Both the position numbers and the translations under genes were made by a program. DNA of 64,000 bases from Malacoraja senta (taxonomy: Eukaryota): contig CM075991.1 in assembly GCA_038087875.1 (NCBI GenBank), positions 3,720,001 to 3,784,000 of the forward strand. Reading direction: 5' to 3'. Below are positions 4,560-34,612 of this stretch, piece after piece (the stretch's first letter is position 1; every line of letters starts with the position of its first letter). The notes beneath the pieces are model-generated. The model was given only the letters and a program-made list of their open reading frames with translations. It did no database searches and had not been told where the DNA came from.

Positions 4560-4592
4560 GCCGCCCCGGGGATTGTCAGGCGGACCCTTCAG
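4560..4592 (+). CDS. SRCR gene: putative short N-terminal linker exon (GRPGDCQADPS)
   Basis: tttctcatttcag acceptor, CAG|gtaacc donor, 33 nt, phase 1-1, in frame with SRCR1. Confidence 0.6.
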
Positions 4593-5099
4593 GTAACCTC
4601 GCTTAACTTTCACTGCGTTAAGAGTGCGGCTACTGAGACTGATTGTTACTGAAGGCCTTTAGTGCTACTTGCGAGGTGACTGCCGTCTAAAGACGGAGTG
4701 ACGATCAGTAATGTCCCTGAAGCGCGCAGTGTGGGGAATCGGCTCTGCTGACATGGTTCCCGGTTCCAAGCGTGTTCCCACTGCTCATCCCACTGTGGAG
4801 TCCCAGTCCGGATCTTTCACCTTTGGCGTCCAATTCCAGGAATGCCTTCACACCTCTAACACGTTTGGGTTCCATTGCCCGTCACATGAGCTTTGAGTAC
4901 AGCGGGGCACTGACCCGCGCAGCTCATCAGCCGCTCTCCCGAGAATAAAAACGAACCTGCAGCTGCCCTTGGAGACACAAGGAACTGTAGATGCTGGTTT
5001 ATAATAAAAAATCACAGTGCTGGAGTAACTCGGTTGGACAGGCAGCATCTCAGGAGAACATGTGTGGGTGTCCGCTGAGTTGCTCCAGCACTCTGTGTC

Positions 5100-5800
5100 C
5101 GCAGCTCACCCTGCCTGCTCGGGCGCCGCTTTCATCCCAAGAATGACCGGGTGATCCCGGTTCCCCGGACGGTTACCAGCTTACTGACTATTGTTGACAC
5201 TGTTAACAGTTCATTCGGGGTCTGCCGCTCCCGTTGATCATTCCGTGGTACATGTGGACTTTGAATGGTTGGAGCTAGGGGTGGCTGGGAGCGCGGTGTG
5301 CGGGGCGCCGACTGACCCGCGGATCAAACCGGCGGCAACGTTTGTTCTTCTATTTTCTGATTTTTGTTTTCAGAAAGCGTGAAGTTGAGGCTGGTGAACG
5401 GGGGCAGTCCATGCGCCGGGAGAGTGGAGGTTCACTACATGGGGAACTGGGGGACTGTGTATGGTGACGGCTGGGACCTGCAGGACGCGGCGGTGGTGTG
5501 TCGGGCGCTGGGCTGCGGCCCCGCGACGGGAGCCCCGGGCGGAGCTCACTTTGGACCGGGGTCCGGACCCATTGTGACGTTGGATGTTCAGTGCAGCGGG
5601 AGCGAGGCCGCTCTGCGGGAGTGTAGATCATGGGCATGGGGGGACTATGACAATCGCTTTTCACACTCCAACGATGCCGGCGTTATCTGCGAAGGTAAAG
5701 ATCAGCTTTTTCTCTCTTTGTTCCGCAGTTTGGTGATTTCCGGGATGCCCTGGGTGTAAATTACTCGGACTGACCGCCCGCGGCGAGTGGTGTGAAATTA
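5100..5800. promoter_or_regulatory. CpG/GC-rich island over SRCR1 exon
   Basis: Visibly high CpG density compared with the AT-rich surroundings and the other SRCR exons (not computed). Confidence 0.5.
5374..5694 (+). CDS. SRCR gene: SRCR domain 1 (6 Cys, lacks C2 and C7)
   Basis: LRLVNGGSPCAGRVEV...WGTVYGDGW...VVCRALGCG...DAGVICE; ttttcag / gtaaag; 321 nt. Confidence 0.95.
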
Positions 5801-6003
5801 AATCCAGTGTCTGTCGGTTTTATTCCTTTCCAATTGGAATCAAATTTCACTTCTGGATCTCACATTCTGGTTTTAATTAAACAAACACAACCGGGAGCAT
5901 TAAATACTCTCACCCGGTACAATGACGGGGCCAAGAAACAAGCGGCTGGAGGAACTGAGTTGGTGAAGCAGCAACTGTCGGGGACTGGTGGCAAGAGAGG
6001 AAT

Positions 6004-6602
6004 AGGGGGGTTGCACGTAAGGTCATCGGGTCAAAGGGCGTGACACACGGAGCAGCTCCATCCATGTGGAGGACATCCGTCACTTCCGGTATATGTTATT
6101 AATGCAAGAAACGTTTTCTTTGTGCATGTAAAAACCCACTTGAGAACCATGGGCGATTTAAAAATTTTACAGACAGATTTATCACTTCTGAAACTTTTTA
6201 GATACCAAAGGAATCAAGAAAAAACACAAATAATGCCTCACTGTTGATGAAATGCAGTGAGCAAACGCGATAATTCCCAATATTTTCAATCTTGATATCT
6301 GCACGGCCAATGTTCGCCAACCACTTTAGCTGTTGTTGTCCCTTCAGCTGTCGCTTCTCTCTACCATCATTTCTCCTCACATTTGGAACTCTGAAGTAGG
6401 ATAAATGTCTTTCACGGTTACCCCGATTTCCACAATTATTTACAGCGAAAAAACTGACCATTTCGGCGTTTTTTTAACAGGTAAGAAAGTACCCGTTTCG
6501 TGTGTTAAAAGTGAATGCCGTAGGCTGCCATGTCCTCCACATGGATGGAACTGCTCCATGCTTCACGCCCTTTGACCCGATGACCTTACATGAAACCCCC
6601 CT
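6004..6602 (-). mobile_element. Non-autonomous DNA transposon with ~75-bp TIRs, AT target duplication and THAP-domain remnant (ISL2EU/Harbinger-like)
   Basis: AT|AGGGGGG...CCCCCCT|AT; ORF 6198-6461 AVNNCGNR..FRVP..KWLANIGR..RVCSLHF. Confidence 0.8.
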
Positions 6603-7486
6603 ATTGTCAACACTCTCAGTCCTGCTGCAGGGGCTCGACCCCGAACGTCCACAGTTCCTCTCCCCCACAGATGCTGCTCGACCCGCTGAGATGCTCCAGC
6701 AGTTTTTTTTTTGCACCAAGTTCCATCATTTGCCGTCTCACGTCAATAGTGCTTTTTATTGTCAGATATATTAATTGATAACACAGTGAAATTATTTTCC
6801 TTACAAACAGTCCAGTGGAGTAATACCATACCCCCGATCCCCAATTAGCAAGTGTACAGGAATCATCTACTGAGCCACATGCAGGAGGAGCCAGGTTCTG
6901 GCGCCATGTTCAAAATCCAAGCTCTAGATCTAACGAGCGGTGCCTGTTCCAGGCAAGTCCCAGGCTGGCCTCCAGCCGCCTCCTTCCTTGGATGCCACGT
7001 CACTCTCTTAACCCGTCCTTTGTTGCCCAGGGTGCCTCCCGCAGCTGATCACGAGGGCGGGGTAAGCCAGACCCTGGTTCCCTCTCCGTTCCTCTCCAAC
7101 TGGCCTTGCTCCTCGCCCGGACATCACTGGCTCCATCCTCCCGGGCTCTGCTCTCCGGCAGACGAGCAGAGGCCAGCACAGCAGCTCCCCCCTTCCCGGT
7201 CAGCGGTCCCCTGTGTCCGACGAACGAGGCTAGATGCAGGAAAAATGTTCCCCATTTGGGGAAGTCCAGAACCAGGGGTCAAAGTTTAAGAAAAATGGGA
7301 AGGCCATTTGGGACTGTGATGAGGAAAAACGTTTTCACCCAAAGAGTTGTGAATCTGTGGAAATCTCTGCCACAGAAGGCAGTGGAGGTCAATTCACTGG
7401 ATGTTTTCAAGAGAGATTTAGCTCTTTGGGCTAACGAAATCAAGGGATATGGGTAAAAATCAGGAACGGGGTATAGATTTTAGATG

Positions 7487-8897: not shown

Positions 8898-9991
8898 CAA
8901 TTCAATTCCAATTCAATTCAATTCAATTCAATTCAACTTTAATGTCATTGCACAAATACTGAGTATGGGTACAACGAAATGCAGTTTTGCGTCAGTCCGT
9001 AGTAGTAGTGCAATATAGAAATTTAAAAAAAAAGAGGATACAGAATAATCAAAAATACAGAATAATTAACAATGGGGACGGAGGGACCGGAGGAATCTAT
9101 CGGCGGGACTCCGAGTTCAGCAATGCGACGGTATAATTGTAGAAGCTGTTCCTCATCCTACTGGTACGAGACCTGAGGCTCCTGTACCGCCTCCCTGATG
9201 GGAGGAGGGCAAACAGTCCATGGTTGGGGTGGGAGGGGTCTTTAATGATCTTCCCAGCCCGTTTCGGACACCGTTTTCGGTGGAGGGCATCCATGGCAGG
9301 GAGCGGGGCACCGATGATGTGCTGCGCGGTTTTCACCACCCGTTGTAGTGCCTTCCTGTCCGCAACAGTGCAGCTGCTGTACCATACCGTGAAGCAGGTG
9401 GTCAGGATGCTCTCGATGGTACACCGGTAGAAGTTGGTCAGGATCTGGGGGGACAGGTGGGCTTTCGTGAGCCTCCTCAGGAAGTAAAGGCGCTGCTGTG
9501 CCTTTTTGATCAGCTTGGAGGAGTTGAGGGACCAGGACAAATCCTCCGAGATGTGTACCCCGAGGAATTTGTAGCTGGAGACGCGCTCCACCTCAGTCCC
9601 GTTTATATGGATGGGGGTATGTCTGCCCCCTCTGACCTTCCTGAAGTCGACAATAATTTCCTTCGTCTTCTTGGAGTTGAGGACGAGGTTATTGTTGGCA
9701 CACCAGGTTGTCAGGTGCTGGACCTCCTCTCTGTAGGCTGACTCATCGTTGTCACTGATCAGTCCTACCACCGTGGTGTCGTCAGCAAACTTAATGATGG
9801 CGTTGGATCCGTACTTAGGGATGCAGTCGTGGGTGAAGAGGGAGTAGAGAAGAGGGCTGAGCACACAGCCCTGTGGCACGCCGGTGTTCAGTGTTATAGT
9901 GGAGGAGGTGAGGTTGTTGACCCTAACAGACTGTGGTCTGTTGGTGAGGAAATCCAGTGTCCAGTTGCAGAGGGAGGTGGAGATGCCATGC
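8898..9991 (-). mobile_element. Rex1/Babar-type LINE, 5'-truncated, uninterrupted RT C-terminal ORF, (TTGAA)n tail; nested in a CR1 fragment
   Basis: [35 protein letters not shown]; (ttcaa)n at 8898-8937; CR1 sequence resumes on both sides. Confidence 0.92.
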
Positions 9992-10673
9992 CAATCTGCA
10001 GAATTCACTGCCACAGACGGCTGTGGAGGCCAAGTCAATGGATGAATGTAATTGTAATTGTCTTATAATTGTAAGGTGGGGATTGACAAATTCTTGTTTA
10101 ATAAGGGTGTCAGGGGTTATGAGGAGAAAGCAGGAGAAAGGGGTTGAGAGGGAAAGCTAGACCAGCCACGATTTAACGGTGAAGTAGACGTGGGCCGAAT
10201 GGTATATAGTTCTTTTTACTACAGTTTGTACTTAGAATTCGTTTAATGGGACCGGAGCAGACAGATACTCTGGGCCAGTTAACACCGTCTTGCTTGTGGA
10301 GTTTGTCAAGTTCTGCAGGACGGAATGTTCTATAAATAATAATTATTTTCGACGTGTTTAGGTTTAGGTTTATCATTGTGACGTTACTGAGGTAGAGTGA
10401 AAAGCTTTGTTTTGCATGCTATGCCAACAGATCAGAAACACAACGCATATTTATAATCAAATACAATATATAGTGCAAAGAGGAAGTTACAGAGAGCAGA
10501 ATATAGTACTCAGCATTTAAGTGCATCGTGATAGAGGAAGGAGAAGGGGAGCACAGATATTATTAGTAAGGGACTGATTTCAACGTCAGATTTGTGCTGA
10601 ACTTTCAGGGATGTTTTTATAAATTGTCCTCATTATTGTGGCTTTCATGACTATCTTTTATATTTTTTCTCAG

Positions 10674-10985
10674 ATCACAGAATGCCAAGATTGGTATCCA
10701 AAGATGATCAGTGTTCGGGAAGACTGGAAGTGCAGTATGGTGAAACCTGGGGAACCGTGTGTGACCAGGCCTGGGATATGGATGATGCCAATGTGGTGTG
10801 CAATCAGCTTCATTGTGGAGAAGCCGTGTCTGTTCCGAGAGGGGCTTATTTTGGAAAGGGGACTGGCATTGTACGGAACGATGTATTTGAATGTAAGGGT
10901 AAAGAGACAAGCCTATGGTACTGTCCGCGTTCTTTAGGAACTCTTCATTGCAACCACACGAGCGATGTCAGTGTGATCTGTTCTG
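10674..10985 (+). CDS. SRCR gene: SRCR domain 2
   Basis: PRLVSKDDQCSGRLEV...WGTVCDQAW...DVSVICS; tttctcag / gtgagt; 312 nt. Confidence 0.95.
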
Positions 10986-11566
10986 GTGAGTGCCAGCTTT
11001 GGAAAATAATTTTTAATAAACACTCATTATACTTGGAAGATAGGGATGAGATCTCGCCATTTACTTTTTATCAAAGAGTTATAAAATGCTGGAATATAAT
11101 TGAGCAGTGCACGACTTTGATGTGATATTGGCAAATGTTTTAACTGGCTAAAATAATTTGAATAATTTCTTACATTCCAACATTATTGATGGTTTACAAT
11201 GTGGAGTTCAGAAGGAGGAAATTAACAGATTTAGATGGTGATATCCATGCGAAGCAACAGCTATTGTCCCATGAATCCTAATCAAAAATTACTCTAGAGT
11301 AAAATATATAGAGTTGTTTATAAACAAATTTACTTCTTCACTGAAACCTTTGAGCATTTTGAGTGGAAAGACAGTTCACTGCAGGAAGGAAAACCATGGA
11401 CAGCTTTAGATGTAAATGATTACACATAGAAAAGTACAAGCAAGAATGCATGACGTTTAAAGGTAAATTTATCCCATGATTTACATTTTTTGTTAGGAAT
11501 GAATTTTTGGTCATATGATCCTATTATAAATGGGGTACCAATTGGTGCATTAGAAAATAGCAAAGT

Positions 11567-13971
11567 GGTAGTATTAATATATGAATTTAGAAATTCACTT
11601 GACTGAGATTTTAATTTTCTTAGAGTTGATGATCTATCCAAGTAAGCATCCAGTGTACATTTTAAGTCTCCACCGATAATTAAGTTATGTTGTGTACATT
11701 CCGGGATAGTGTTAAGTATTCTCTTAAACAGGGGGCTATCAAAATTTGGTCCATACACATTAAGGAGAGTTACTTTTTTTGAATATAACTCCCCTACTAA
11801 TACAATATATCTGCCTTCAATATCTTCTATCGTTGATATATGTTTAAAGTGTATACCTTTACGAATTAATATTGCAACCCCTCTAGATTTATGTGAGAAT
11901 GAAGAGTGATACGCTTTAGCAATCCATTTTGTTTTCAATCTATGTTGTGCTTCCTTTTTAAGATGTGTTTCCTGTGGAAATATTATATCTGCTTTGTGAC
12001 TTTAAATGAGCTAATACTTTACCTCTCTTGATTGGTTCATTAATTCCCTTAACATTCCAACTACAGAATTTAATTCCTTCGCCCCCAATTTTCCTATTAA
12101 CGTCTTGCATCTTGTGATTAAAGTGGTCTAGGTTAGAGCAGATGGCTCAGCACACTAAACCCTACCTTATACCCAAACATCAGGTAGATGAATTTTAAGT
12201 CTCGTCGGTTTTCCATCCGGACATATCTCCCTAAATAAAATATATAATTCCATTCCAAATACAAAATATAATATAACATAAGATAGAAAAGTAAAAAAAA
12301 GTTACATTAATAGCGTGTAAAGAGTAAAAAAAGAAGAAAACTACAACTATAATTAGTGCAGTTAGTGATAGCCACCCTAATGTGGCTAAGCATCTAAGGA
12401 CTTCCGTAGCCTTTGGTAAAAAAAAAAATGTTACTAGCTCCGTACTTTCCTTAGAAGGAAAGTTTCAATTACAATGAAAACAACTTATGGGGGGGGGATG
12501 GAATCAATAGTTATATTCCATAATTGAAATAATTATTAGTCTCCAATTGAAATGTTAGTTGCAAAAAATTAAAAAGAACACATTGTTAAAGAGTAAAATC
12601 AAAAAGATCAAAGAGAAAACTTCCTAAATTTGTATTAATAAATTACCTGAATCACACTATACTTATATTTCATACTTTTCATTAATTCAGAGTTGATCCA
12701 GTTAACAATAATTAGTATTGATTAGTATTCATGATTAGTAATAGTTGTTAGAAATTAGTAATAAAATGTAAATATTATATATTAGTAGCAATCTAATTGC
12801 CCAATTCTTATTGCAGATTTTGGACAGTTCTTAAGTATAATAGTTTAGAGTTCCATTTCTTCTCTGCAGGGTAACAATGTCCGATATCTTCAGGTGAATG
12901 TTGGGTGTAGTGTATTATTCAATCTTCGGTCTTATTCACGATGCTCTGGGCGAATTCAAGTGCTTCTGTGTGCTTGATGAAAAAATGTTCCTTCCGTTCG
13001 TAGGTTACTCTTAATGTTGCGGGATATAACAGTCCATATCTCAAATTGTTTATATTCTTAAGTATTCTTCTTGTTTCTGTAAACAGCGCTCTCTTCTTGG
13101 CGACTTCCACAGGATAATCTCTAAATATACTGATCTTGTCTCCTTCAAATTCGAGGTTTCTGCTTTGAACAATTATCTTCATCATATTATCCAAAACATG
13201 GTCATATTGCACCTTCACTATCAGTTGTCTTGGAGGGGCGCCCTCCCTTGGGCGACGTCTCGATACTCTGTGCGCTCGGGCAAGTAGTGGTGCTTGATCC
13301 AGATTCAAGACTTTTTTCAGTAGAGCTGCAGCAAATTCACGGGGGTCACGATTCCCCTCTCTGCCTTCCTGGACGCCCACAATTCTTAAATTTTGGCATC
13401 CCTGTCGTCCCTCCAAGTCAATACATTTTTCGGTTATTTGATGCAATAACTTTGATAGGCGTTTATTCTCGGCAATAAGTTTATCTGTAGTTTCCGTGCT
13501 CGCCTCAGCAATTTCCTCTAATTCCGTTACGACCTGTCGATGTTGATTTAATGTCTGGAGGATAGGTTCCAACTTAGAATGAAATCTAGATTCCATCGAA
13601 TTCAGTTTATCATTTACTTCTCCAATATTTTGTTTCAAATTTTCTTCCATATCTAACTTCCAATCTTCCAGAACTTCATGTACAGAAGCAGTAACTTCTT
13701 CTTTAATTTGTTCTTTAATTTCCTCTTTTAAAGAAGTCAAATCCTGTTTGAGACTTTTAAATTTTTTCATTATGTTAGAGATTTCCTGTTTGAGGAAGAT
13801 TTTTAACTCTTCCACTTCTGTCTTTTTCTTCTGTGAGATATCTTCTAGGGATGCTGTTAAAACTGAGGCCGAGGCTTCAGTTGGGCCTACCTCTTTTCCC
13901 TTGCCGGTTTTTCTCGCCTTGGGGGGGGGGGGGGGTATGTTGAGTCGACATGCTGCCGGTGTCGCACGCCT
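11567..13971 (-). mobile_element. L1-clade LINE, inverted 5' part: ORF1 (12919-~13951) and ORF2 endonuclease N-terminus (from 12110)
   Basis: ORF1 coiled coil + NLRIVGVQEG..RAHR..ISIFRDY..LLYPATLRV; EN SWNVKGIN, QETH, LNVYGPN, GGD; frameshifted. Confidence 0.92.
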
Positions 13972-15646
13972 GATGTTTGGAGAATTGAAAATCCATCTGG
14001 TCGAGAATACTCATTTTACTCACCAGTGCATAAAACTTACTCAAGGATAGACTACTTTTTAGTAGACTCTAAACTTATCCCATTTACCTATAACTCGCAA
14101 TATCATAATATTATAATATCAGATCATGCTCCACTAACATTTATGATTAAACTAAATGGAATGACCGAGACACAGTTGCAATGGAGACTTAACCCCCAAA
14201 TCTTAAAAGAAAAACTATGTAATGAATATCTCGTAAAACAGATTAATATGTCCTTTGAGGCTAATGATAGCCCTGGAATCTCTGCCTCCCTTTTTTGGGA
14301 AACATTTAAAGCATTTGTGCGAGGAGCATTAATCTCTTCGCAATCATTTCTTAACAAAGAGAATAGGGCTAAACGACAGACTTTGGAAACAGAAATAAGG
14401 CAATTAGACATAGAAAATGCAATAGCACCATCTATGGCAAAACACAATAAAATTGCAGTACTGAAATATAAGTTAAATAAGATATACTCAGACCAAGTTA
14501 TAAAACTATATCAACATACAAAACAATTAAACTTTGAATTTGGTGATAAACCACAAAAACTATTAGCACGTCAACTTCGTAAACTGGACGGGGAAAAAAC
14601 AATTTACAAAATTAGATCAGACAAGGGAGAAATATTAACACTGCCTAAAGATATTAATGATAGATTTTTACAATACTATCAAAAACTGTACTCATCTAAA
14701 ACGACAGAACAATCAGCAGGAATGGAAACATTTCTACAGAAATGTAACCTTACAGGTTTAGATCAGAAAGAGAGAGAATCACTAGATGCAGAAATTAAGG
14801 TAAAAGACATCGAAGAGTCAATTAGATCTTTAAAAAACGGAAAGGCCCCAGGTCCTGATGGTCTAAGCTCTGAATTTTATTAAAAAAATTATGATCTGAT
14901 TTCTCCACGCCTACAGACACTGTACAAATACGCTTACACTCAACAGAAACTCCCAGAAACTCTAAATTAATCTACAATCATACTTATACCAAAAATGGAT
15001 AAGGATCCTGAAGACCCAGGTTCATATAGAGCAATAGCTCTCTTAAATACTGATCAAAAAATATTAACCAAAATCCTATCTCATAGATTGAGCTTAGTGA
15101 TTAACAAATTAATACACCCCGACCAAACTGGTTTTATTCCAAAACGTTACTCATTTTATAATTTGAGAAGATTATTCAAATAGATTTCCTAATGTAATAA
15201 TAATAATAATGGATTTTATTTACGGGCGCCTTATACCGAGGTCTCAAGGACACCATACAGAGATTTATAGAAAACATATAATCAGAATTAAAAAAAAATA
15301 GGTTATAAAGACCAATACATAAATCAGGGACAGAATTCCTTCCAAAAACACAAAAAAAAAGAAAATCAGAAGCACAACTTGAGGAGAGAGCAGCAGCCTA
15401 GCAATTATATCGTTAGATGCTGAAAAAGCATTTGACCAGGTAGAATGGTCATATTTATTTTCGGTAATGGAAAAATTTCAACTTGGAGAGAAGTACTGTA
15501 CATGGATTAAACTGTTATACTCCAATCCAACAGCTAGAATACTAACAAACCAAATGTTATCAGTTAAATTTTATCTTTCTAGAGGTTGCAGACAAGGATG
15601 TTCTCTATCTCCACTATTATTTGCTCTTGCCATTGAACCATTAGCA
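13972..15646 (+). mobile_element. L1-clade LINE ORF2 continuation (end of EN to mid-RT), with stops, 3'-truncated
   Basis: [57 protein letters not shown]. Confidence 0.92.
15185..15398 (-). mobile_element. Short LINE 3'-end fragment with (TTA)n tail nested in the L1 RT
   Basis: Interrupts L1 ORF2 between NLRRLF and [12 protein letters not shown]; (taa)n run at its left end. Confidence 0.6.
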
Positions 15647-17147: not shown

Positions 17148-17462
17148 GGAACCATGGCCCACGACTGGTCGGTGGGAATGATAGATGCTCTGGCCGGGTG
17201 GAAGTTCTACATGGAGACGAGTGGGGGACAGTTTGCGATCAGTACTTTAGCTTGCTTGAAGCCGGCGTGGTCTGTGAACAACTACAGTGCGGTGCAGTGG
17301 CCGCAACTCCCGGAGTTACTCACTTTGGCCGAGGATCCGGCCCTGTGTGGAAGGAGAACTACCACTGTCAGGGGAACGAGTCTCGATTAGTTGATTGTCC
17401 AGTCTTACCCAGGGATCAGATGAGTTGTTCACACAGAAACGACGCCGGTCTCATCTGCTCAG
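17148..17462 (+). CDS. SRCR gene: SRCR domain 3
   Basis: PRLVGGNDRCSGRVEV...WGTVCDQYF...DAGLICS; aaaacag / gtgagt; 315 nt. Confidence 0.95.
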
Positions 17463-19078: not shown

Positions 19079-19393
19079 ATGAAATTTGGTCTCTGAGATT
19101 GATCAATGGAGACAGCCGCTGCGACGGCCGAGTGGAGGTTTACCACAATGGTAGATGGTGGAGAGTGCAGGATAGCGCCTGGAACATCAATGATTCCAAC
19201 GTGGTCTGCAGAGAGTTGGGCTGCGGCTCCGCCATATTCGCCTACAACTCCTCAAGGTACGGAGAGAGTGAGCTGCCCGTGTGGGTGAACAACGTTCAGT
19301 GTGAAGGAAACGAGTCGCAACTCCGTGGTTGCAGCACATTTACGCTGAATCAGACATCCAACGACAGCATCGGTGTTGGAGTCCTGTGCTCAG
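19079..19393 (+). CDS. SRCR gene: SRCR domain 4 (6 Cys, lacks C2 and C7)
   Basis: LRLINGDSRCDGRVEV...WWRVQDSAW...VGVLCS; tattatag / gtgaat; 315 nt. Confidence 0.95.
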
Positions 19394-19609: not shown

Positions 19610-19921
19610 AAATATTTATATTACACATCTGTATATAAATATATATATATGACACACCTGCATATAAATATATATATTACATACATGTATATAAATATAT
19701 ATATTACACACCTGTGTATCGATATATAAATTACACACCTGTATATAAATATATATATTAGACACCTGAGATCCCTTTAAGACTATGTTGGAGAATAATA
19801 CCTGAACAATATTCTAGGTGTATACACATACACACAGGCACACACACCCACACACCAACACACCAACACTATCTCACACACACCCACATATACACAAACG
19901 CACACTCATACACCAACACTA

Positions 19922-20019
<98 letters not shown>

Positions 20020-20105
20020 ACACACACACACCAACATCATCACACACACACACCAACATCATCACACACACAGGCACATTCGTACGCACACATAAGCACA
20101 CACAC
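19610..20105. repeat. AT-rich minisatellite followed by (CA)n microsatellite
   Basis: tattacacacctgtatataaatata units; pure (CA)n at ~19923-20015. Confidence 0.95.
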
Positions 20106-20169
20106 ATTTATTTATATGTTAGCCTGGAGAAAGTTATAATATCGTGTAAAGATACAGCATGGAGACAGG

Positions 20170-21323
20170 CCCTTAACTTCTTATCACAACGGCAGCAGAC
20201 AGTCAGGGGCAGTCGGACATCAAAAACCATCACCGTGAGCACTGGCTCACCCCAAGGCTGTGTCCTAAGCCCCCTGCTGTTTAGTCTGCTTACACATGAT
20301 TGTACTGCTAGACTCAATAACAACTATATCAACAAGTTCGCTGATGACACAACGGTGGTGGGTCTCATCAGCGACAATAATGAGTCGGCGTACAGGATGG
20401 AGGTGGAGCTGCTCACAGGATGGTGCAGATCCCACAACCTCACTCTTAATGTGGGAAAAACTAAGGAGCTGATGTTCGACTTCAGGAGGGCGGGAAAACA
20501 ACACCATACACCGCTGTATATTGATGGAACTGCTGTGGAGAGGGTCAGCAGTGTGAAGTTCCTAGGACTCCACCTGTCGGATGACCTGACCTCTATGACC
20601 AACACCACAGCATTGGTCAAAAGAGCCCAACTGCGACTCCACCCTCTCCGGAGACTTCGGAAATCAGGTCTCCCCACTGCCCATCTAAGAACCTTCTATA
20701 CGGGCACAATTGAAAGCATAACAACCTACGGCATCACTTCCTGGTTCGGGAGCTGCAAGGCTTACGAACAATATCAACTAAACAGGATAGAGAAGACCGC
20801 CAGCAGGATTATCGGTGCCCCACTCCCTTTCCTGCTGGATATATACAAGAAGAGGAGCATCAGTAGAGCCATCTCCATCATCCAGGACCCCTACCACATC
20901 ACATCTTTTCCATTCTGCCATCTGGGAAGAGGTACAGGAGCATCAGCTGCAAAACCAGCAGGATGCTCCTCAGCTTCTTCCCACAGGCAATAAGACTGAT
21001 TAACGGACTTTGTCCCCTCCCAAAACATCGCTCATCCACACATCCAACCGCGCCCATACTTTGACAGTTAGGCACCTGTCAAAGTAAAGCCACTGTGAAG
21101 CCACTGTCGATTAGAATGACTGTTTTTATTATATTGTAAATTTTTAGGCCTACTTTCTTTTTAAGAATGGTAATTTTAATTTGTTTTTAAAGCTCTATGT
21201 ATTATCCTTTTGTTTTTTACACTGAATGGAAACGGATTGAGCAACGTTTTTTCGTTTCCTCTGTGTATGCGAGTACTCAGTGAAATGATATTACAGAAAT
21301 ACTGAATACTGAATAATGAATAA
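20170..21323 (+). mobile_element. Second Rex1-type LINE fragment
   Basis: [27 protein letters not shown]; frameshift near 20900; (tactgaa)-like tail. Confidence 0.88.
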
Positions 21324-21929
21324 AGATACATCATGGAGACAGGGCCTTCGGCCCATCGAATCCACCCCGAAGACTGATTACTCATTGGTTCTATATTATC
21401 CCACTGTCTCATAAACTTCCTTGACACTGGGGGAATTTAACGGAGGCCATTTAACCTACAAACGCGCCAGCCTTTCGGATCTGGAAGAAACCCATGTGGT
21501 CAGGTGTGCAAACGTGTAATATCCACACAGACAGCACCTGAGGTCAGGATCAAACCGGAGTCTTGGGTAGTGTGAGGCCACAGCATTACCATTGTCTATT
21601 TTCTATTAAAACAAAATATATAGCAGGACTTTTGCAACATTCTCCACCCAGACCTGGGTGTAAAGTGGGAGGTAGTCCACGTATAGATATTGTCCACGTA
21701 TACTATGGGCCCTCTCCATTTCCAGTCGGCAGAAGAGACCAACAGGTCCAGGGAGCAGGCGATGGTGAGTGTGAGGGGCCGTGTGTGAGAGAAGTCTGGA
21801 CAAGAAACACTTCCATGTGGTGTGGAACAACACAGGGTACCTTTCCGAGGGATAGCATGGAAGGCGCGGCCGAACGTGAGATGATGGGTGTACATTACAA
21901 TTGTGTGATTAACCCCCATTGTTCAACAG

Positions 21930-22244
21930 ACCATGTCCAATTAAGGCTGTCTGGGGGTGGAAGTACATGTGCTGGACGAGTGGAGATTTATTACCATGGA
22001 TCTTGGGGAACAGTTTGTGATGACTCCTGGGATCTGGACGACGCTAATGTGGTCTGTGGGCAGCTAGGTTGCGGATATGCTGTGGAAGATAAAATTCCGG
22101 GATTCTGTGGACGAAGTAAAGGCCAAATTTGGTTGGATGAAGTAAGATGCTCGGGTAACGAATCATACCTCTGGAACTGTTCCTCCGCACCGTGGGGTCG
22201 GCACGATTGCAGTCATAAGGAAGATGTGACAGTGAAGTGTTCTG
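21930..22244 (+). CDS. SRCR gene: SRCR domain 5 (extra ninth Cys)
   Basis: LRLSGGGSTCAGRVEI...WGTVCDDSW...GFCG...DVTVKCS; caacag / gtaagg; 315 nt. Confidence 0.95.
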
Positions 22245-22798
22245 GTAAGGATACGTTCGGTCTGCTGATTTTCTGCAGCTTAGAGTGGGAACCTTCATTC
22301 CAGAGATGTATTCAATGATTTATCGCAAACAATGCGAGCATTGAATCTCGTTGATGGATTAGAGTCCTTTCTCTCAGTCTGCATAGGGTTTGTTCTACTC
22401 ACCAACACCAAACTACACCCACCCCCCTCCACGTATAGCCCTTCTCATTTCGCCCTCAGCAGTTGTCTGGTTTAACGGCATTTGTCCACATTTCCCAAAA
22501 TAGACTGACGAGGTGTTTATCGGCATTTTCGGCACAGGCATTGTGGATGGAAGGGCCTGTTCCTGTGGTATGAACGGGAGATATTCCCGTGTCACTCTTT
22601 ATTTTATAATCTTGCTTTAAGGATCGTGATTGTCAATTTTCATTTCGATTTTAAACAATCGAAAGTTAATTAAATGGAGTATATGCTTTCAGGTTCAGAT
22701 CTGTAGCAACTTCAACCAGCACTGAAACAAGATTGCACCGTTTGGGCGGAAATCGCCTTCCAAACATGGGAGGACACAAAGGGGCCTGACATCTAGGA

Positions 22799-23255
22799 CA
22801 GGGGTCGGCAACCTCCGGCCCGTAACCCGAAATCATCCGGCCCGCAGGCGTATTTGGTTTTCAATTAGTTTTCGCGACCTGGGTACTGCAGCCAGTCCCG
22901 GGGCACGGAGGCGACCTAGGAACTGCAGCCAGACCAGGGGCAAGCCAGCCGTCCTGTGCGCTGCAGCCAGAACTGCCAGCTGACCTGGGCGCGCAGACCA
23001 CATGGGAACTGCAGGTCCTTTGGCCCACCGTGTCCGCGCCGACCAGCAATCATCCTGTACACTAGCACCATCCGACACACTAGGGACAATTTACAATTTA
23101 CCGAAGCACTTTTAAAATACAAACCTGCACGTCTTTGGAGTGTGGGTCAGGGGAGCTGACCTGGGCGCTACATCTAGTCCCGGGGCACGCAGGCGACCAT
23201 GGCGCTACATCCAGATCTGGGGCAAGCGAGCCGTCCTGGGACTGGCTGTAGCGCT
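22799..23255. mobile_element. hAT-like MITE fragment with internal GC-rich sub-repeats
   Basis: CAGGGGTCGGCAAC terminus; second terminus not found. Confidence 0.45.
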
Positions 23256-23566
23256 CAGGTCACAAAACATGGGGGGGAGGGGGGATGTCTCCCACCTCTC
23301 AAAACATGGGGGGTGGTGGGAGACAGGTCCCCCGTCCTCCCATGAATTACCACACATATTTCCCTGCCCTCCACTTTCAGCGACTTGATAGAACAGCTGC
23401 CCTTACGATTTTTGTCTTCACCCAATCTGTTCCCAACTGCCAGTCTCTGTTGAGTTTTTCCAGCGACATCTGTTTTTGTTGAATCAGATCTTTCTCATGC
23501 GTCGTTCTTGCTATCTGCGGGATGGATACATTATGATGACCTGTGTGTCTCCTGTTCCCTTCACAG

Positions 23567-23890
23567 AACACAAAGAGATGCGCCTGGTGAACGGAGGCCG
23601 GCGGTGTGAAGGGAGAGTAGAAGTGTGGTACAACGGGACATGGGGAACAGTGTGCTCCGAGAAGCTATATGCAGATAAGGCGGCCGGGAAAGTGATCTGT
23701 AAACAATTAGAATGTGGACCCTTCGCATATATTGAACCTGACGTCAGGAAATATGGAAAAGGTTCTGGGCCCATATGGATGGATGAGATGAAATGTAGCT
23801 CGCACGAGTCAGCCCTTTGGCAGTGCCAATTTGACCCTTGGGGGCAACATAACTGTGACCACAGGGAGGATGCAGGCGTTTCATGTAAAG
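23567..23890 (+). CDS. SRCR gene: SRCR domain 6
   Basis: MRLVNGGRRCEGRVEV...WGTVCSEK...DAGVSCK; cttcacag / gtaaca; 324 nt. Confidence 0.95.
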
Positions 23891-23967
23891 GTAACACAGG
23901 AAAGTCAGCATACGATGGCAGATTAAACACGCGCGTAAATCCGTCAACATTTCACTGTTCTCAACAG

Positions 23968-24042
23968 ATGCTGAAATGCCGGAGACAACTCACGGAAAAG
24001 ACTGCGACGGAGGAAATGATTCTAAATCTCGCCGTTTACCAG
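23968..24042 (+). CDS. SRCR gene: inter-domain linker exon (DAEMPETTHGKDCDGGNDSKSRRLP) with GC donor
   Basis: ttctcaacag acceptor after a 77-nt intron; CAG|gcgagt donor; 75 nt, phase 1-1, open. Confidence 0.7.
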
Positions 24043-24687
24043 GCGAGTCATTCTACTACTTACGCCGTCAGCATGACGTCAACCCCTGATGTTTGATGAA
24101 TGAGTGATCAACTAAATAGCTGAGAACCCTCAACAACTTCTCTTTAGACTTCTCTCACGTTCTTCTCGTTAAACGTGTAGCCATGGGTCCTTGCATGGAT
24201 CCCAGCTAGGTCTGCCTTTTGATTCAAGTACTGTGAATAGTCCTTCTTCTAAACGTACACTGGCATCATTCCCCAAACTCATTGTTCGCTCCTTGGACAT
24301 AAAATATACCACCCACATACCCTTCCATTTCCCGCCTCCCCCACAACCCCATCCGTCCGTTTCCACCTTTATCCTTTCCTCTGGATTCATATTTCATCGT
24401 CGTCATTCCTTATATTACAACCCTTTGTCCTCTTTTCATATCTAACCTTTGTGCACCCATCTGTAAATGAACACCGCCACACCTGAATCCACCTATCACT
24501 TGCCTAGATTACATCCGCCTTCATCTCTGTTACAGCCTCTTCCCCACCCTCTTACTAGAATCAGTCTGAAGAGAGGTCCCGATCCGAAACGTCACCTGCA
24601 CACGTCATGCAGAGATGCTGTCTGACCCGTTGAGTTACTTCAGCACTCACGTATTTTTAACTGAGTATTTAATTTAATTTCACTTAG

Positions 24688-24999
24688 ATCTACAATTGCG
24701 GGTTGATGGCGGCAGCAACAAATGCTCCGGAAGGGTTGAAATATTATTCAATAACAGATGGGGAACGGTGTGTGATGACTCCTGGGATCTCGCCGATGCC
24801 AATGTCGTCTGCAGACAGTTGGGCTGTGGCTCTGCTCTTTGGACTCCAGGAGCGGCGACCATTGCCCCGCCCTCAGATGATATCTGGCTGGATGAAGTGA
24901 AATGCACGGGTAGTGAATCATTCCTGTCCCGTTGTCTGGCTTCACCGATCGGTCAACATGACTGTGATCACAAGGAAGATGTCTTTGTTACCTGTTCTG
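24688..24999 (+). CDS. SRCR gene: SRCR domain 7 (membrane-proximal)
   Basis: LRVDGGSNKCSGRVEI...WGTVCDDSW...DVFVTCS; cacttag / gtatgt; 312 nt. Confidence 0.95.
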
Positions 25000-25127
25000 G
25001 TATGTGTCGTTCGGCATATTCCCCGATCTCTACACCTCTTCAATTTCATAAGTAAAATATCGTTTTTTTAAATTGAAAATCTAAAGAGATGACGTTGCTA
25101 AAAACACTTATCAATGTCCACGTCCAG

Positions 25128-25157
25128 TTTTGATTCCCTCTGGCTCCAGCACTTCAG
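25128..25157 (+). CDS. SRCR gene: putative Ser/Pro/Thr stalk mini-exon (VLIPSGSSTS)
   Basis: cgtccag acceptor, CAG|gtattc donor, 30 nt, phase 1-1. Confidence 0.5.
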
Positions 25158-25316
25158 GTATTCGTTATTCATGCGATGTTGACCATTACACTTACACACT
25201 ATGCTGACTGTGCTGATATTCGCTTGCTACTGTTTGCTAATTGCTGAGAACATGATAGGTGGTTTTCAAATTGGCTGACTCAGTATGTGAAACAGGACTT
25301 GCAAAATTCTAAAAAA

Positions 25317-26145
25317 TCATAGAAACATAGAAGCATAGAAAATAGGTGCAGGAGGAGGCCATTCGGCCCTTCGAGCCAACACCGCCATTCATTATGATCA
25401 TGGCTGATCGTCCCCTATCCATAACCTGTGCCCGCCTTCTCCTCATATATTTTGACTCCACTAGCCCCTAGTGCTCTTTCTAACTATCTCTTAAATCCAT
25501 CCAGTGACTTGGCCTCCACTGCCCTCTGTGGCAGGGAATTCCATAAATTCACAACTCTCTGGGTGAAAACGTTTTTTCTCACCTCAGTCTTAAATTACCT
25601 CCCCTTTATTCTAAGACTGTGGCCCCTGGATCTGGACTCGCCCAACATTGGAAACATTTTTCCTGCATCTAACTTGTCCAGTCCTTTTATAATGTTATAT
25701 GTTTCTATAAGATCCCCCCTCGTCCTTCTAAACTCCAATAAATACAAGCCTGGTCTTTTCAATCTTTCCTCATATGACAGTCCCGCCATCCCAGGGATCA
25801 TCTCATCTATGCTGCACTGCCTCAATCACAAGGATGTCCTTCCTCAAATTAGGAGACCAAAACTGTACACAATACTCCAGATGTGGTCTCACCAGAGCCC
25901 TATACAACTGCAGAAGAACCTCTTTACTCCTATACTGAAATCCTCTTGTTATGAAGGCCAACATACCATTAGCTTTCTTCACTGCCTGCTGTACCTGTAA
26001 GCCAACTTTCAGTGACCGGTGTACAAGGACCCCCAGGTCTCGCTACACCTCCCCCTTACCTAACCTAACCCCATTGAGATAATAATCTGCCCCCTTGTTT
26101 TTTCCACCAAAGTGGATGACCTCATATTTATCTACATTATACTGC
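25317..26145 (-). mobile_element. CR1 (HER1-like) LINE 3' fragment
   Basis: IPGMAGLSYEERL..RGDLIETY..SRGHSLRIKG; (catagaaa)n tail. Confidence 0.88.
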
Positions 26146-26863
26146 TGTCCAGATGTCCAGCTCCAGACAAATATCTATTTGACAAGACAGGGTATTGGAC
26201 TCATTGCAGTATTTTCTCCTCAGGAAGTGTTGGTAATAGGAATCATATTGCGCTTTTCAGTGAGGATTACTGACCTTTGATTAACGGCTGTTAATTAACT
26301 GTTATTATGTGTAGGAACCAAGATAAGTTATAAAATGTGGAAGTATTTGTTTGTGAGTGTTCCTCTGTTTGGTGGCATGTCGAGTCAGTGAAAACAGTGC
26401 TTGCTCTTTCGCAAGATGTTGTCGAAAGGGTGTTCGGGCTTATGGGGCGATGGCAGGTGAATGGGTTTAAGAGGGAAAGATATCGGCCATGATTGGAGGG
26501 CGGAGTGGACTTGATGGGCCAAATGGTCTTATTCATCGAAGTCTGTGGCAAGCAGTGTGGATGCAGCGTGAATGCACATTATGCCTGAATACAATATTGA
26601 AGCTGTTGTCTGAATACAGAGCGTCACTAGTGAGGAACCAGGACATTCTAGTATATTTTCTATTTATCCCACTCCGCACAACACAATAGAGACTTGAGCG
26701 TTTTATTGTTTTCCGCTCAGCCATTCTTCTGGTGCAATGTATGACCGGATTTGGGGGAACATGTCTAGCAAAGCAAGATGCACAACCAGCGGTTAAAATT
26801 CATCAATTGTCCCAAGAAATGTTTTCAGTTTGGACCAACTGCTTCTGTTTCCCGTTTGTCCAG

Positions 26864-26995
26864 GTATTTCAATTTCAGAGTTGGGAAACAAGCCGCCCTC
26901 CGTGGCTGTTGTGGTTTGCACAACTCTCGGAATCCTCCTCATCGCTGAATTTGTCACACTGGTGATAATAACTCGGAGGCAATCAGCAAGAAGAG
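26864..26995 (+). CDS. SRCR gene: transmembrane exon
   Basis: PSVAVVVCTTLGILLIAEFVTLVII followed by basic stop-transfer TRRQSARR; tttgtccag / gtgagg; 132 nt. Confidence 0.9.
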
Positions 26996-27224
26996 GTGAG
27001 GTTCAACGTTACAGCGTTATTATTCCAGACAATATTTCATAGCGTGAAGAGACTTTCATTCGCTTTTCCATGTGCTCTTTTCTTTCTTGCATTTTGAGCA
27101 ATAAATGCAACTGTGTGGCATTGTGTAGGTATTCCAGGGTTCCTATTGGAAAGAGCAATTAGTCGTAATAGCATGGAATGTTACATTTGATTATTGTTTG
27201 GGTCCCCCATCAATTGTTCACTTA

Positions 27225-27670
27225 CATAGATACATAGAAAATAGGTGCAGGAGTAGGCCATTCGGCCCTTCGAGCCTGCACCGCCATTCAATATGATCAT
27301 GGCTGATCATCCAACTCAGTATCCCGTACCTGCCTTCTCTCCATACCCCCTGATCCCTTTAGCCACAAGGGCCACATCTAACTCCCTCTTAAATATAGCC
27401 AATGAACTGGCCTCAACTACCCTCTGTGGCAGAGAGTTCCAGAGATTCACCACTCTCTGTGTGAAAAAGTTTTTCCTCATCTCGGTCTTAAAGGATTTCC
27501 CCCTTATCCTTAAGCTGTGACCCCTTGTCCTGGACTTCCCCAACATCGGGAACAATCTTCCTGCATCTAGCCTGTCCAACCCCATAAGAATTTTGTACGT
27601 TTCTATAAGATCCCCTCTCAATCTCCTAAATTCTAGCGAGTATAAGCCAAGTCTATCCAGTCTTTCTTCA
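27225..27670 (-). mobile_element. CR1 LINE 3' fragment
   Basis: RGDLIETYKIL..TRGHSLRIRG..FFTQRVVNLWNSLP. Confidence 0.88.
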
Positions 27671-27671
27671 T

Positions 27672-27850
27672 AACTTGACTGTTATTCAACATACCATTGG
27701 GGTGGGAGATTGCAACCTTCACGTGGTCCGCCCTGTTTCGACGAATGCAATCAACCTGGCGTGCACAATCAAATAAGATCAAATAGAACAAGTTGTCCGA
27801 CAACTTTAGGCTGTGCACGCCATACGCAAGAAGAAGAAGAAGAAGAAGAA
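27672..27850 (+). mobile_element. Probable LINE 3' end with (GAA)n tail
   Basis: Discrete segment ending in (gaa)7, abutting the CR1 fragment. Confidence 0.45.
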
Positions 27851-28368: not shown

Positions 28369-28470
28369 GTGCAGAGATGAGAGGCAGGGGCTTTGGCTTT
28401 TACGAAGCAATTTATGAAGAGATTGACGATACTCTTCCTGGAAAGAATATCAGTCAGATGGATGATTCAA
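28369..28470 (+). CDS. SRCR gene: cytoplasmic exon 1 with FYEAIYEEID motif
   Basis: ctttcaacag acceptor; GAEMRGRGFGFYEAIYEEIDDTLPGKNISQMDDS; weak phase-1 donor A|gtgtgt. Confidence 0.85.
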
Positions 28471-30773: not shown

Positions 30774-30884
30774 TCTCTGGGTCCATTGATTCCATGAATC
30801 AAATAGAATATTACACCAGCGACCCTCTAGGTTGTGCTCATCTAACAAGCGAACTCCCTGAAGGAACCTCCTCCAGTGTTCGAG
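30774..30884 (+). CDS. SRCR gene: cytoplasmic exon 2
   Basis: gacttctag acceptor; ISGSIDSMNQIEYYTSDPLGCAHLTSELPEGTSSSVR; GAG|gttggt; 111 nt. Confidence 0.75.
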
Positions 30885-31396: not shown

Positions 31397-31528
31397 ATCT
31401 AGTTCCTGATGACCATGACGATCCTGAGAGTAAAGCCATTGACTGTCCGGGCTGTCAGTTCGCGATGGACGGTGGCGCCGATGACCATCTGATGCTAACA
31501 GTTGCCGGCGGTGACGTGGACATTGGTG
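31397..31528 (+). CDS. SRCR gene: cytoplasmic exon 3 (acidic); read-through would stop at 31554
   Basis: cttcattctag acceptor; DLVPDDHDDPESKAIDC...DVDIG; GTG|gtgagt phase-1 donor. Confidence 0.7.
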
Positions 31529-33039
31529 GTGAGTCAGTCTCTGACATGCCATAATCACCAATCCTCAGCAAAATATTCCACCGACTGCGTTGTTTTATAT
31601 TCACTTTCGTGCTTCAAATATTATTTGCTAAAAGAAAAGACATGTTCAGAGAAAGGTGCCCACGAACGGGTTTGTTCTTACTCGAACAACGAGTTATTCA
31701 CAACTGCAATGTGAACCATATGAATACAGTATCTAATTTGTCATGTTACATGTCGGCTTATTTCCCCCTTGAGACTGCGTTATCGTTATCAACCTGCACG
31801 GGATTGACGGTGGGGGGGGGGGGGGGGGAGCCTCCAACAGACTCCAGTTCTAGTCCCTGTTTACAAAAAAAATGAATTGTTGTACATAGAAACCGCACTG
31901 CTGGCTATTCTATTGCACCGTCGTCTCTCCGTCCAAATATGCCAGACACAATGCGGCGGAGTAAGTCAATCAACATCAATCAACATGGATGATTGACGGC
32001 TTAAGTTGAAAACCTTCTTCAGAATTCTCGGAGAGAGAACTGTGTTAGAGTCGGGAGAGTCTGGCAACTGATAGGTGGATACGGCCGAGGAATTTACAAC
32101 CCAACGGAATGAACGTTAAGTCTTCCATTTTATACACAACCCAACAACCCGCCCACCAAAACTGCACTCCCCCTTATCCCCCTCGCTTCCTTGTTCACCA
32201 CCCCGAATGCGCACCATTTTTTCCCCATTGTACCGTCCCATTTCCCTTCCCCATCACTTTCCATTCTATCACTTCACATTTCGCACCTTACAATATCTCA
32301 CAGCCATTTGCCTTTTTCCATCTCTTGCCTTGATCCGCCCATCTGTCGATCAAACAACCCCCACCTGTATCCACATATCACTTGCAGGATTTTGTCCCTC
32401 CCCCACCTCTTCGCCAGCTTTCTCCCCCTATTACAATTTGTCTGAAAAAGGGACCAACTCGAAACCTTCCCTATCCATGTGGTTTGTTGTTTGACCCTTT
32501 ATGTTTCTCCAACACTTTGGGTTTCATTCTGTACACCAGCACCTATAGTTCATTGTGTCTGCTCTATTCCACTGCTGCCGTTCTTTCATAATTGAATAAT
32601 CCTCGCCATGCAATGCCATCTCCCACAAACTGAAATTTTCCGGCTACCTGCTCTACAAACAGCAATGATGAACGCCACAGTCCCGGCCCTTGCAGCACCC
32701 ATTGGGTTTGATGGCTCTATTCCATATTTTACATCAGAGCCATGAAGACGGAAGAAAACAATATTTCATGCGTTTACTTTCACTGTCGTGGGGTATTTGT
32801 TCAATTTTGGGTGGACTGTGTTGAAATATCTGTGATGCTGATTCGAAATAACATTATTGGTGAGAAACTGCCACATGCATTTGTTGAAATACACAATTAC
32901 TTACACATTCCGTTGACTTTCTATTATGAAGTGATGTATCACTTTATTTTAACTACAATATCTAGTAATCGTATTCATACTTTCCGTGAGATTACATTAC
33001 ATTTATAATTAAGACGTTGAACTGAGTTAACAGAGACCA

Positions 33040-34210
33040 TATGATGTCACCAACTTGGTTTGGATGAGAATGTACAAGACATGATTAGTAAGTTTGAAGA
33101 TGAGAATAAAATGGGTGGTATCGTAGACAGTGAAAATGATAATGAAAGTAACAGCAACCTCTTGTTGAGCTGGTCTAGTTCATTGAGCACTGGCTAATTG
33201 AGTGTAATAGACAATATACAATAGACAATAAGTGCAGGAGTAGGACATTCGGCCCATCGAGCCAGCATCGCCATTCACTGTGATCATGGCTGATCATTCA
33301 CAGTCGGTACCCTGTTCCTGCCTTTTCACCATATACCCTGACTCTGCTATCTTAAAGAGCTCTATCTAACTCTCTCTTGAAAGGATCCAGGGAATTGGCC
33401 TCCACTGCCTTCATGGCAGAGAATTCTGTGGGGCGTGTTTTACGTGGGCGTGTTGCAGTTTCGGAAAGCAAACTTGGACAGTGCGCTCACAACAGATGAT
33501 GAGGCCCTGGGGCTCGTTGAAAGGCAGAGGGATCTAGAAATCCAGATACACAGTTCCCTAAAGGTGGTAGCACGGGTTGATAGTGTGGCAAAGAAGGCTT
33601 TTAGCACATTGGCTTTCATCGATCAAATTTTTTAGTGTTAAAGTGGGGTGTTATGTTACGTACATGACGTTGGCAAGGTTCCATTTGGGGTACTCTGTTC
33701 ACTTTTGGTCGCCCTGCTACACGAAGCATGTCATTAAGCTGAAAAGAGAGCAGAGATGATTTGCAAGGGTATTGCCAAGACTTGAGCGGCTGAGATATAG
33801 GGAATGGCTGGACAGAGTAGGACATTTTTCATTGGAGCGTAGGAGGCTGAGGGTTATCTAATAGAGGTGTATAAGATGATGAGGGGACCGGATAGGGCAA
33901 ATGTACAGTGCCTTTTTAGTCTAGAGGAGGGAAATCAAGAATTAGTATACATAGGTTTAAGGGGAGAGTGGTAGATTTAAGGTGACAGGGCAAACTTTTA
34001 TTTCAGATGGTTGACGATACGTGGAACGAGATGGAGATGGTTGAGACAGGCAATGTAATCGCTTCTAAACAATACTTGGACAGATACATGGGCAGGTTAG
34101 GTTAAATGGATATGAGCCAACGCGGGCAAGTGGGAGTAGCTTAGGTGGGCTCTTTGGTTGGATTTGACAAGTTGGGCAAAATGTCCTGTTTCAGGGCTGT
34201 ATGACTCCAT
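33040..34210 (+). mobile_element. Degenerate CR1 RT 3' region with nested inverted CR1 tail (33207-33425)
   Basis: ISKFEDENKMGG.., RDLEIQIHSSLKV, FWSPCY remnants. Confidence 0.8.
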
Positions 34211-34299
34211 GTCTCGAATATTACGAACATCTTTTTTTTATTCATGTTAAGTCTTGATTTTAGCTGGCCCAATAATATTTGCTTTGTTTTCCTTCCCAG

Positions 34300-34340
34300 A
34301 TGAATTTAGCATGATACCTTGTTTCCAAAGCCTGTCTTGA
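34300..34340 (+). CDS. SRCR gene: putative terminal coding exon (DEFSMIPCFQSLS*)
   Basis: strong ttttccttcccag acceptor, in frame at phase 1, TGA at 34338-34340, AATAAA ~270 nt downstream. Confidence 0.6.
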
Positions 34341-34606: not shown

Positions 34607-34612
34607 AATAAA
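34607..34612 (+). terminator. Putative polyadenylation signal of SRCR gene
   Basis: AATAAA followed by T-rich sequence after the candidate last exon. Confidence 0.5.

Follow-up and report, generated by a model that had tools for sequence, protein, structure and literature searches.

A predicted WC1/CD163c-type receptor gene of the skate Malacoraja senta and its young array of paralogs

We analyzed a window of 64,000 nucleotides from the genome of Malacoraja senta (GenBank assembly GCA_038087875.1, contig CM075991.1, positions 3,720,001 to 3,784,000 of the forward strand). This contig is called C15 below, other contigs bear similar labels, and coordinates without a label are those of the window. 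The window holds a gene whose predicted product is a single-pass receptor from the WC1/CD163c (SCART) branch of the CD163 family, with SRCR (scavenger receptor cysteine-rich) domains, a hinge, a transmembrane (TM) segment and a tyrosine-containing tail. It belongs to an array of about 27 copies, as assembled. An earlier note on this DNA had assigned it to a probable cartilaginous fish, which can be narrowed to a skate, with SRCR4 95% identical to protein P0059 of Amblyraja radiata.

Gene model and splicing

A six-frame reading found exactly seven SRCR exons on the + strand of the window, each above the Pfam PF00530 cut-off. Fifteen exons, spread over 2640-34340, are predicted from the sequence to join into one frame of 965 amino acids with no internal stop, encoding in order a leader, seven SRCR domains with a hinge between domains 6 and 7, the TM segment and the YEEI tail. 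The internal exons are of phase 1 and their lengths are multiples of three. The seven domains, the hinge exon before the last of them and the TM and EAIYEEID exons had all been read correctly in the earlier note. It had placed the gene start at 4560; this is exon 2, and a candidate leader exon, identical in the three of three paralog units checked, lies upstream. The absence of CUB and ZP domains, likewise claimed, was borne out: the frame ends in TM and tail, and the genome's 12 ZP matches all lie on other contigs, which rules out a DMBT1 identity. The exons, and a 5' block discussed below, are as follows.

56 to 7200, + strand: 5' block of upstream DNA, exons 1 and 2 and SRCR1, 92-97% identical to a paralog of the expanded subfamily, introns included
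2640 to 2697, + strand: candidate exon 1, predicted hydrophobic leader, with an ATG, a hydrophobic run and a phase-1 GTGAG donor
4560 to 4592, + strand: exon 2, end of the leader, 33 nt with AG/GT borders; its peptide is common to paralogs, other skates and sharks
5374 to 5694, + strand: SRCR1, a-type, the variable domain of the family, with six cysteines and lacking Cys2 and Cys7
10674 to 10985, + strand: SRCR2, b/c-type
17148 to 17462, + strand: SRCR3, b/c-type
19079 to 19393, + strand: SRCR4, n-type, with six cysteines and lacking Cys2 and Cys7
21930 to 22244, + strand: SRCR5, d-type
23567 to 23890, + strand: SRCR6, e-type
23968 to 24042, + strand: hinge exon of 75 nt, with one cysteine and a GC-AG donor; its peptide is the same in RefSeq models P0059 and P0130
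24688 to 24999, + strand: SRCR7, membrane-proximal, d' by position
26864 to 26995, + strand: TM exon, with a second in-frame acceptor 15 nt downstream
28369 to 28470, + strand: tail exon 1, EAIYEEID, in which YEEI holds the second tyrosine of the tail
30774 to 30884, + strand: tail exon 2, IEYYTSD, matching the LPYYT/LQYYT motif of sheep, camel and turtle
31397 to 31528, + strand: tail exon 3, with DDHDD where most paralogs have DDYDD
34300 to 34340, + strand: last coding exon, ending in the stop codon; a poly(A) signal, AATAAA, follows at 34607

Two splice sites are unusual. The GC donor of the hinge exon (24042/24043) is kept in 25 of 26 paralogs, with the exon at 75 nt, while the divergent copy at 5.0 Mb on C15 has GT; this donor may favor exon skipping. 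The TM exon has two in-frame acceptors, at 26864 and 26879, and the expanded paralogs retain only the downstream one.

To follow splicing, four runs classed as RNA by a tool's guess were aligned to 21800-27150, a span that ends before the tail exons. In contigs of runs X1 and X4 (guessed RNA from a related organism with 95-97% likeness) domain 5 runs straight into domain 6, and the non-repeat intron bins are empty. One X4 contig of depth 10.6 spans domain 7. The bin depths over the hinge (4.46) and the TM exon (7.4 and 0.33) equal 10.6 times the exon share of each bin, so that by this depth arithmetic alone the contig probably carries the hinge and TM exons as well. Run X5 is probably DNA, run X14 yielded short divergent pieces only, and repeats swamped the joint table. 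For the joint between the TM and YEEI exons, support comes from automated RefSeq models: those of two other skates, A. radiata and Leucoraja erinacea, connect these same exons and bear the automatic names 'DMBT1-like' or 'antigen WC1.1-like'. The claim that TM and tail exons are spliced to the SRCR exons stands on contigs of guessed-RNA runs for the domain 5-6 joint and on these gene models for the TM-tail joint.

Kinship with WC1 and CD163c

Passages of Herzig 2010 (PMC2906472) letter the domains of the CD163 family, with a diagnostic of WC1 and n of CD163c. We typed the skate domains in a FastTree tree of 213 domains, with long repetitive proteins thinned to selected domains. Support was taken from the Shimodaira-Hasegawa (SH) values of FastTree and from 67 FastTree bootstraps, each scored by the nearest bony-vertebrate type, and the outgroups were proteins annotated as DMBT1-like or SSC5D from gar, cod, birds, reptiles and a brittle star rather than verified human DMBT1, CD5 or CD6. 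All seven skate domains fell inside CD163-family clades in the SH tree, domains 1 to 7 being placed as a, b/c, b/c, n, d, a shark group at the e position, and d'. In the bootstraps, domain 1 was a in 53 of 67, domains 2 and 3 were b, c or b+c in 54 each, and domains 4, 5 and 6 were n, d and e in 59, 51 and 50. With SRCR7 taken as d' by position, the layout is a-(b/c)-(b/c)-n-d-e-hinge-d'. SRCR1 forms a clade with the first domains of cattle, muntjac, birds and teleosts (SH 0.90). No skate domain was assigned to the CD163A types h-k alone in more than one of the 67 bootstraps. Type profiles mostly agree with the tree, by small margins.

Several results weigh against this typing. At the level of single domains, the separation from DMBT1 that the earlier note anticipated holds for six of the seven (50-59 of 67 bootstraps in CD163-family types), while the bootstraps leave SRCR7 between the two: it groups with the DMBT1-like outgroup in 29 and is d' in 18, and its d' clade has SH 0.93; its profile scores are 142 for d', 141 for d and 137 for DMBT1-like domains. 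The margin of SRCR1 is also small (137 bits, against 130 for DMBT1-like domains), and SRCR6 scores higher with the d profile (126) than with e (114). The n references are non-mammalian (turtle, duck, amphibian, coelacanth and fish) and were labeled by position and tree. Finally, loss of Cys2 and Cys7 in domain a is patchy: both are absent in cattle, muntjac, tarpon and sharks and kept in duck, cowbird, turtle, eel and a cyprinid, so this loss may be recurrent or convergent. Searches of the PDB gave generic SRCR matches only, mammalian SCART1 was not among the named matches of the similarity searches, and a single-sequence AlphaFold model of SRCR1 (pLDDT score 44.8, low confidence) was not used.

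The tail was compared with a profile of five mammalian WC1-type tails, which includes about six juxtamembrane residues ahead of the first tail exon. The skate tail scores 31.3 bits against this mammal-only profile, a value reached by none of 500 shuffles (maximum 6.7). Three motifs are colinear with those of mammalian tails, namely YEE(I/L), (L/I)xYYT and YDD, and the skate YEEI fits the cytoplasmic Y-(Q/E)-(D/C/E)-(I/L) motif of the CD163 family. A cysteine-containing e-d' linker is found in cattle, buffalo and sheep WC1 as well as in turtle and bichir, in keeping with the statement in the earlier note that WC1 has a hinge before its membrane-proximal domain. Our interim view that ruminant WC1 lacks this hinge came from an incomplete model (P0038) and was overturned by the cattle, buffalo and sheep proteins. 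Given the domain types and their order, the e-hinge-d' linker and the three colinear tail motifs, common descent with WC1/CD163c is the economical reading and, in our judgment, a highly probable one. The gene would not be a strict WC1, because its SRCR4 is n-type and the layout is therefore hybrid.

The closest known systems are themselves hybrids. Passages of Herzig 2010, which cover mammals, platypus and chicken, describe chicken genes that combine a with c-n-d-e-d' and a family-wide Y-(Q/E)-(D/C/E)-(I/L) motif (PMC2906472). The skate gene is like these hybrid WC1/CD163c genes and like turtle 'antigen WC1.1-like' proteins such as P0161 in its seven domains, N-terminal a, n-d-e-hinge-d' and TM segment, in the succession of YEEI, YYT and YDD-type motifs, and in belonging to a multi-copy family. 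It differs in that domains 2 and 3 are both b/c-like and inseparable and in that the third motif of the window copy carries H instead of Y; unlike in turtle and duck, its SRCR1 lacks Cys2 and Cys7. With ruminant WC1 (13 genes) it shares a six-cysteine a-type domain 1 that is the most variable, the e-hinge-d' arrangement, the second tail tyrosine in YEE(L/I) and a gene array. Ruminant WC1, in contrast, has 6 or 11 domains, no n and an extra linker between c and d, and its function and cell type were shown in cattle; the two arrays expanded independently, the skate copies being 94-99% identical in DNA. CD163c-alpha/SCART1-2 (m-l-b-c-n-d-e-d') resembles it in an n domain without Cys2 and Cys7, the d-e-d' end and a Y-E-(D/E)-I motif, but the skate gene starts with an a-type domain, has seven domains rather than eight and is present in many copies; m and l were compared by layout, the reference set holding no m or l sequences. 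CD163A (M130) and DMBT1 share group B SRCR repeats with it. The skate gene lacks the h-i-j-k domains and YREM tail of the former and the CUB and ZP domains of the latter, is not secreted, and has mutually dissimilar domains.

A separate gene on the minus strand of C8 (about 25,169,000-25,196,000) carries eight SRCR domains, of which the two at the N terminus are divergent and the others are, in order, b/c, c, n, d, e and d'-like. It ends in a probable TM segment, PVYEEID and a YDD motif, and was seen once in our searches. Its layout would fit that of SCART1 (m-l-b-c-n-d-e-d') better than the window gene does.

The nearest named relatives of the window gene are skate proteins, and the TM and tail of A. 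radiata P0059 are 91-96% identical to those of other Amblyraja and Leucoraja proteins. The same TM and tail occur in rays, sharks, bichir, sturgeon, gar, teleosts, coelacanth, amphibians, turtles, birds, platypus, wallaby, degu, camel and ruminants; since a skate tail and a shark tail went into the search profile, matches in those groups are partly by construction. Lamprey, hagfish, chimaera and invertebrates were not among the 30 named representatives of the 150 matches listed (190 at E≤0.001) or the 120 listed of 608, and as the remaining listed tail relatives are unnamed, absence outside jawed vertebrates does not follow. Relatives with this TM and tail across sharks, rays, bony fishes and tetrapods would place the origin at or before the jawed-vertebrate ancestor, the skate lineage being about 450 million years apart from that of chicken and turtle according to part of PMC6238376. 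Herzig 2010 follows WC1/CD163c-like genes back as far as chicken and platypus, about 315 million years (PMC2906472). The earlier note had left two options, a WC1-like architecture dating back to the origin of jawed vertebrates or convergence; domain order, linker and tail motifs, together with this distribution, agree with the first.

A young array with a variable first domain

Besides the window gene, the genome contains 26 further copies whose domain 7 is 83-86% identical, a broken copy with 76%, and 28 copies of domain 1 at 81-90%. Tandem copies lie on single contigs (four on C685, three on C173, three on C5931, and five plus the window gene on C15); many copies belong to contigs that are unplaced, and certain pairs reach 99.9% identity. 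Of the 26 paralogs, 17 are free of defects between domain 2 and tail exon 3, and nine have a stop, a frameshift, a truncation or an exon missing from the fetched DNA; some of these nine may be assembly errors or haplotigs. More divergent members, which point to older duplication layers, were seen at C15:4,990,800-5,003,000 (clearly broken, with the tail YQHIYEEI), at 28 kb and 748 kb on C7, and on C3138 and C4538. In some paralogs, self-matches reveal a tandem repeat of about 63 bp near the second tail exon.

The copies differ most in domain 1, where mean identity is 0.86, against 0.92-0.99 elsewhere, and where 26 copies encode 23 distinct proteins. In these comparisons domain 1 was taken without the window gene and without two further copies, one bearing a stop and the other a frameshift; elsewhere, broken or unfetched exons were left out (n=20-26). 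For domain 1 the ratio of nonsynonymous to synonymous polymorphism (pN/pS) is 3.2, as against 0.2-0.9 for domains 2-7 and 0.44 for the tail. A conservative minimum-change count gave 85 nonsynonymous and 15 synonymous changes in domain 1 (ratio 1.9, P=0.009) against 112 and 66 in domains 2-7 (Fisher P=1e-4 between the two), with conservative ratios of 0.16-0.5 in domains 3-5, 7 and the tail. The excess of replacement is thus confined to domain 1. In bovine WC1, domain 1 is likewise the most variable, as stated in part of PMC2681482.

This variation may bear on ligand binding. Part of PMC7043408 reports that SRCR8 of DMBT1 binds ligand through cations held by D1019, D1020, D1058, D1059, N1081 and E1086, for which motif spacing gives columns 30, 31, 69, 70, 92/94 and 99 of skate domain 1. 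Five of these six cation-site columns are among the 21 of 106 columns with at least three residues (hypergeometric P=0.001), and columns 29 and 95, the positions expected for Cys2 and Cys7, vary between copies too. SRCR1 itself lacks both the Cys2-Cys7 bond and the acidic cation cluster. Two points of method count against reading this as selection on a binding face: the cation sites were mapped by sequence motif and picked after the variation had been seen, and selection was assessed by counting methods whose assumed independence is breached by gene conversion and possible haplotigs.

The window gene is a mosaic. Its 5' block is 92-97% identical to a paralog of the expanded subfamily, whereas from 10.6 kb on only exon neighborhoods align to the paralog, at 66-84%, repeats aside. 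Domain 1 is 0.90 identical to the in-genome paralogs, against 0.71-0.86 to other skates; domains 4-7 reverse this, with 0.86-0.97 to other skates and 0.75-0.86 to the paralogs. Promoter, leader and domain 1 were thus likely transferred between two subfamilies, in one direction or the other. The subfamily of the window gene has DHDD where the expanded subfamily has DYDD, and two intact paralogs have YEES in place of YEEI; through the DHDD/DYDD and YEES/YEEI differences the tails therefore differ in tyrosine content.

Elsewhere in the window, 41982-42559 is a palindromic element of about 580 bp, with long imperfect inverted arms of 32-bp repeats, that resembles a non-autonomous DNA transposon. 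Introns and downstream DNA contain retroelement-like open frames and common repeats (9100-10062, 11423-14880, 19818-20990, 25320-26145, 27220-27680 and 58909-59746), and several minisatellites lie downstream of the gene. About 55 kb upstream, on the minus strand at C15:3,666,800-3,667,300, is an HTRA-like first exon (IGFBP plus Kazal; best PDB match HTRA1), in which the leader appears to shift frame twice. It was the only neighbor found by synteny: the FUOM and EMG1 markers matched nothing, ECH had no match on C8 or C15, and none of the best 150 of 608 matches in the C1 set lay on C15. HTRA1 adjoins DMBT1 in the human genome, and the HTRA-like neighbor hints at a shared paralogon.

Proposed function and alternative explanations

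By analogy with cattle WC1 and cod, we consider it somewhat more likely than not that the gene encodes a lymphocyte pattern-recognition co-receptor. The variable outer domain 1 would bind microbial surfaces, a ligand class suggested by the same two animals, from which the next two steps are also borrowed: the conserved YEEI tail would be the substrate of a Src-family kinase and, once phosphorylated, would boost antigen-receptor signaling in one subset of lymphocytes, with gamma-delta T cells the likeliest. Because the positions of the lost Cys2-Cys7 bond and cation cluster vary between copies, the binding surface would differ from copy to copy while stalk and tail stay nearly constant. Where subfamilies exchange the 5' block, as in the window gene, binding domains would be combined anew with tails. 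In the cattle system, as described in part of PMC8356672, WC1 binds bacteria via its SRCR domains and potentiates T-cell receptor signaling via Src-family phosphorylation of tail tyrosines; the signaling tyrosine is the second of the tail, in YEEL, according to passages of PMC2906472. In cod, a CD163-like 'm130' gene marks a putative gamma-delta T cluster (PMC9276791, in part). Three facts tell against the proposal. The cod gene is a candidate homolog only; bovine CD163A, of the same family, was expressed in all tissues tested (PMC2906472), so family membership leaves the cell type unfixed; and the window copy lacks the DYDD tyrosine that most paralogs keep.

A receptor of the same ancestry could instead serve pattern recognition or scavenging in myeloid cells, B cells or epithelia, with the T-cell role acquired later in bony vertebrates. 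CD163A is a macrophage receptor as well as broadly expressed in cattle, and diversifying selection on a ligand face suits any pathogen-binding receptor. Still, the skate tail profile is WC1/CD163c-like and not CD163A-like (YREM), the h-k types hardly appear in the bootstraps, and the candidate cod homolog marks T cells; we regard this alternative as somewhat unlikely. It is improbable that the array and its variation are for the most part without function, made up of recent segmental duplicates (some of them haplotigs) that decay as selection is relaxed. The many unplaced copies, the near-identical pairs and the nine copies with a defect or a missing exon would fit such decay, but several copies stand in tandem on single contigs (C685, C173, C5931 and C15), domain-1 proteins are nearly all distinct, and low ratios in domains 3-5, 7 and the tail beside one above 1 in domain 1 are not expected of it.

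We think it very improbable that a DMBT1/SSC5D-like gene gained a TM segment and tyrosine tail independently in cartilaginous fish. The outgroup placements of SRCR7, the RefSeq name 'DMBT1-like' given to many shark members and the HTRA-like exon are what such convergent assembly would offer. Against it, six domains fall in type-specific clades in the order known from bony vertebrates, the three tail motifs keep the same order, with a tail score well beyond that of any shuffle, and the TM and tail family is continuous across jawed vertebrates, which already disfavors it.

Returning to the lymphocyte co-receptor, we put forward tentatively, as possible and in some doubt, a fuller picture: in cartilaginous fish, gamma-delta T cells would use a germline repertoire of WC1-type receptors, in which the co-receptor is ancestral to jawed vertebrates, the roughly 27 skate copies arose independently of those of ruminants, positive selection acts on the face of domain a that in other SRCR proteins is a fixed cation site, recombination reshuffles this domain between tail subtypes, and the WC1/SCART split is equally old. 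The separate SCART1-like single-copy gene suggests this last point. Passages of Herzig 2010 tie array size to species rich in gamma-delta T cells (PMC2906472).

Database auto-labels already read 'WC1.1-like' on some shark and skate genes, and the kind of receptor is known. Our searches of the open literature turned up no work on these genes in cartilaginous fish; subscription papers and the supplements of shark genome and single-cell studies could mention them. New from this window are the young array, selection restricted to the ligand face of domain a, and domain shuffling. Because the copies are still 94-99% identical, the array keeps selection on the binding face readable and names about 20 candidate residues for ligand specificity. 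Since skates and sharks have a member with the full layout and a homologous tail, the receptor would, like gamma-delta T cells, go back to the ancestor of all living jawed vertebrates. The gene is a candidate marker for T-cell subsets of sharks and skates, and the prediction is that skates would be rich in gamma-delta T cells.

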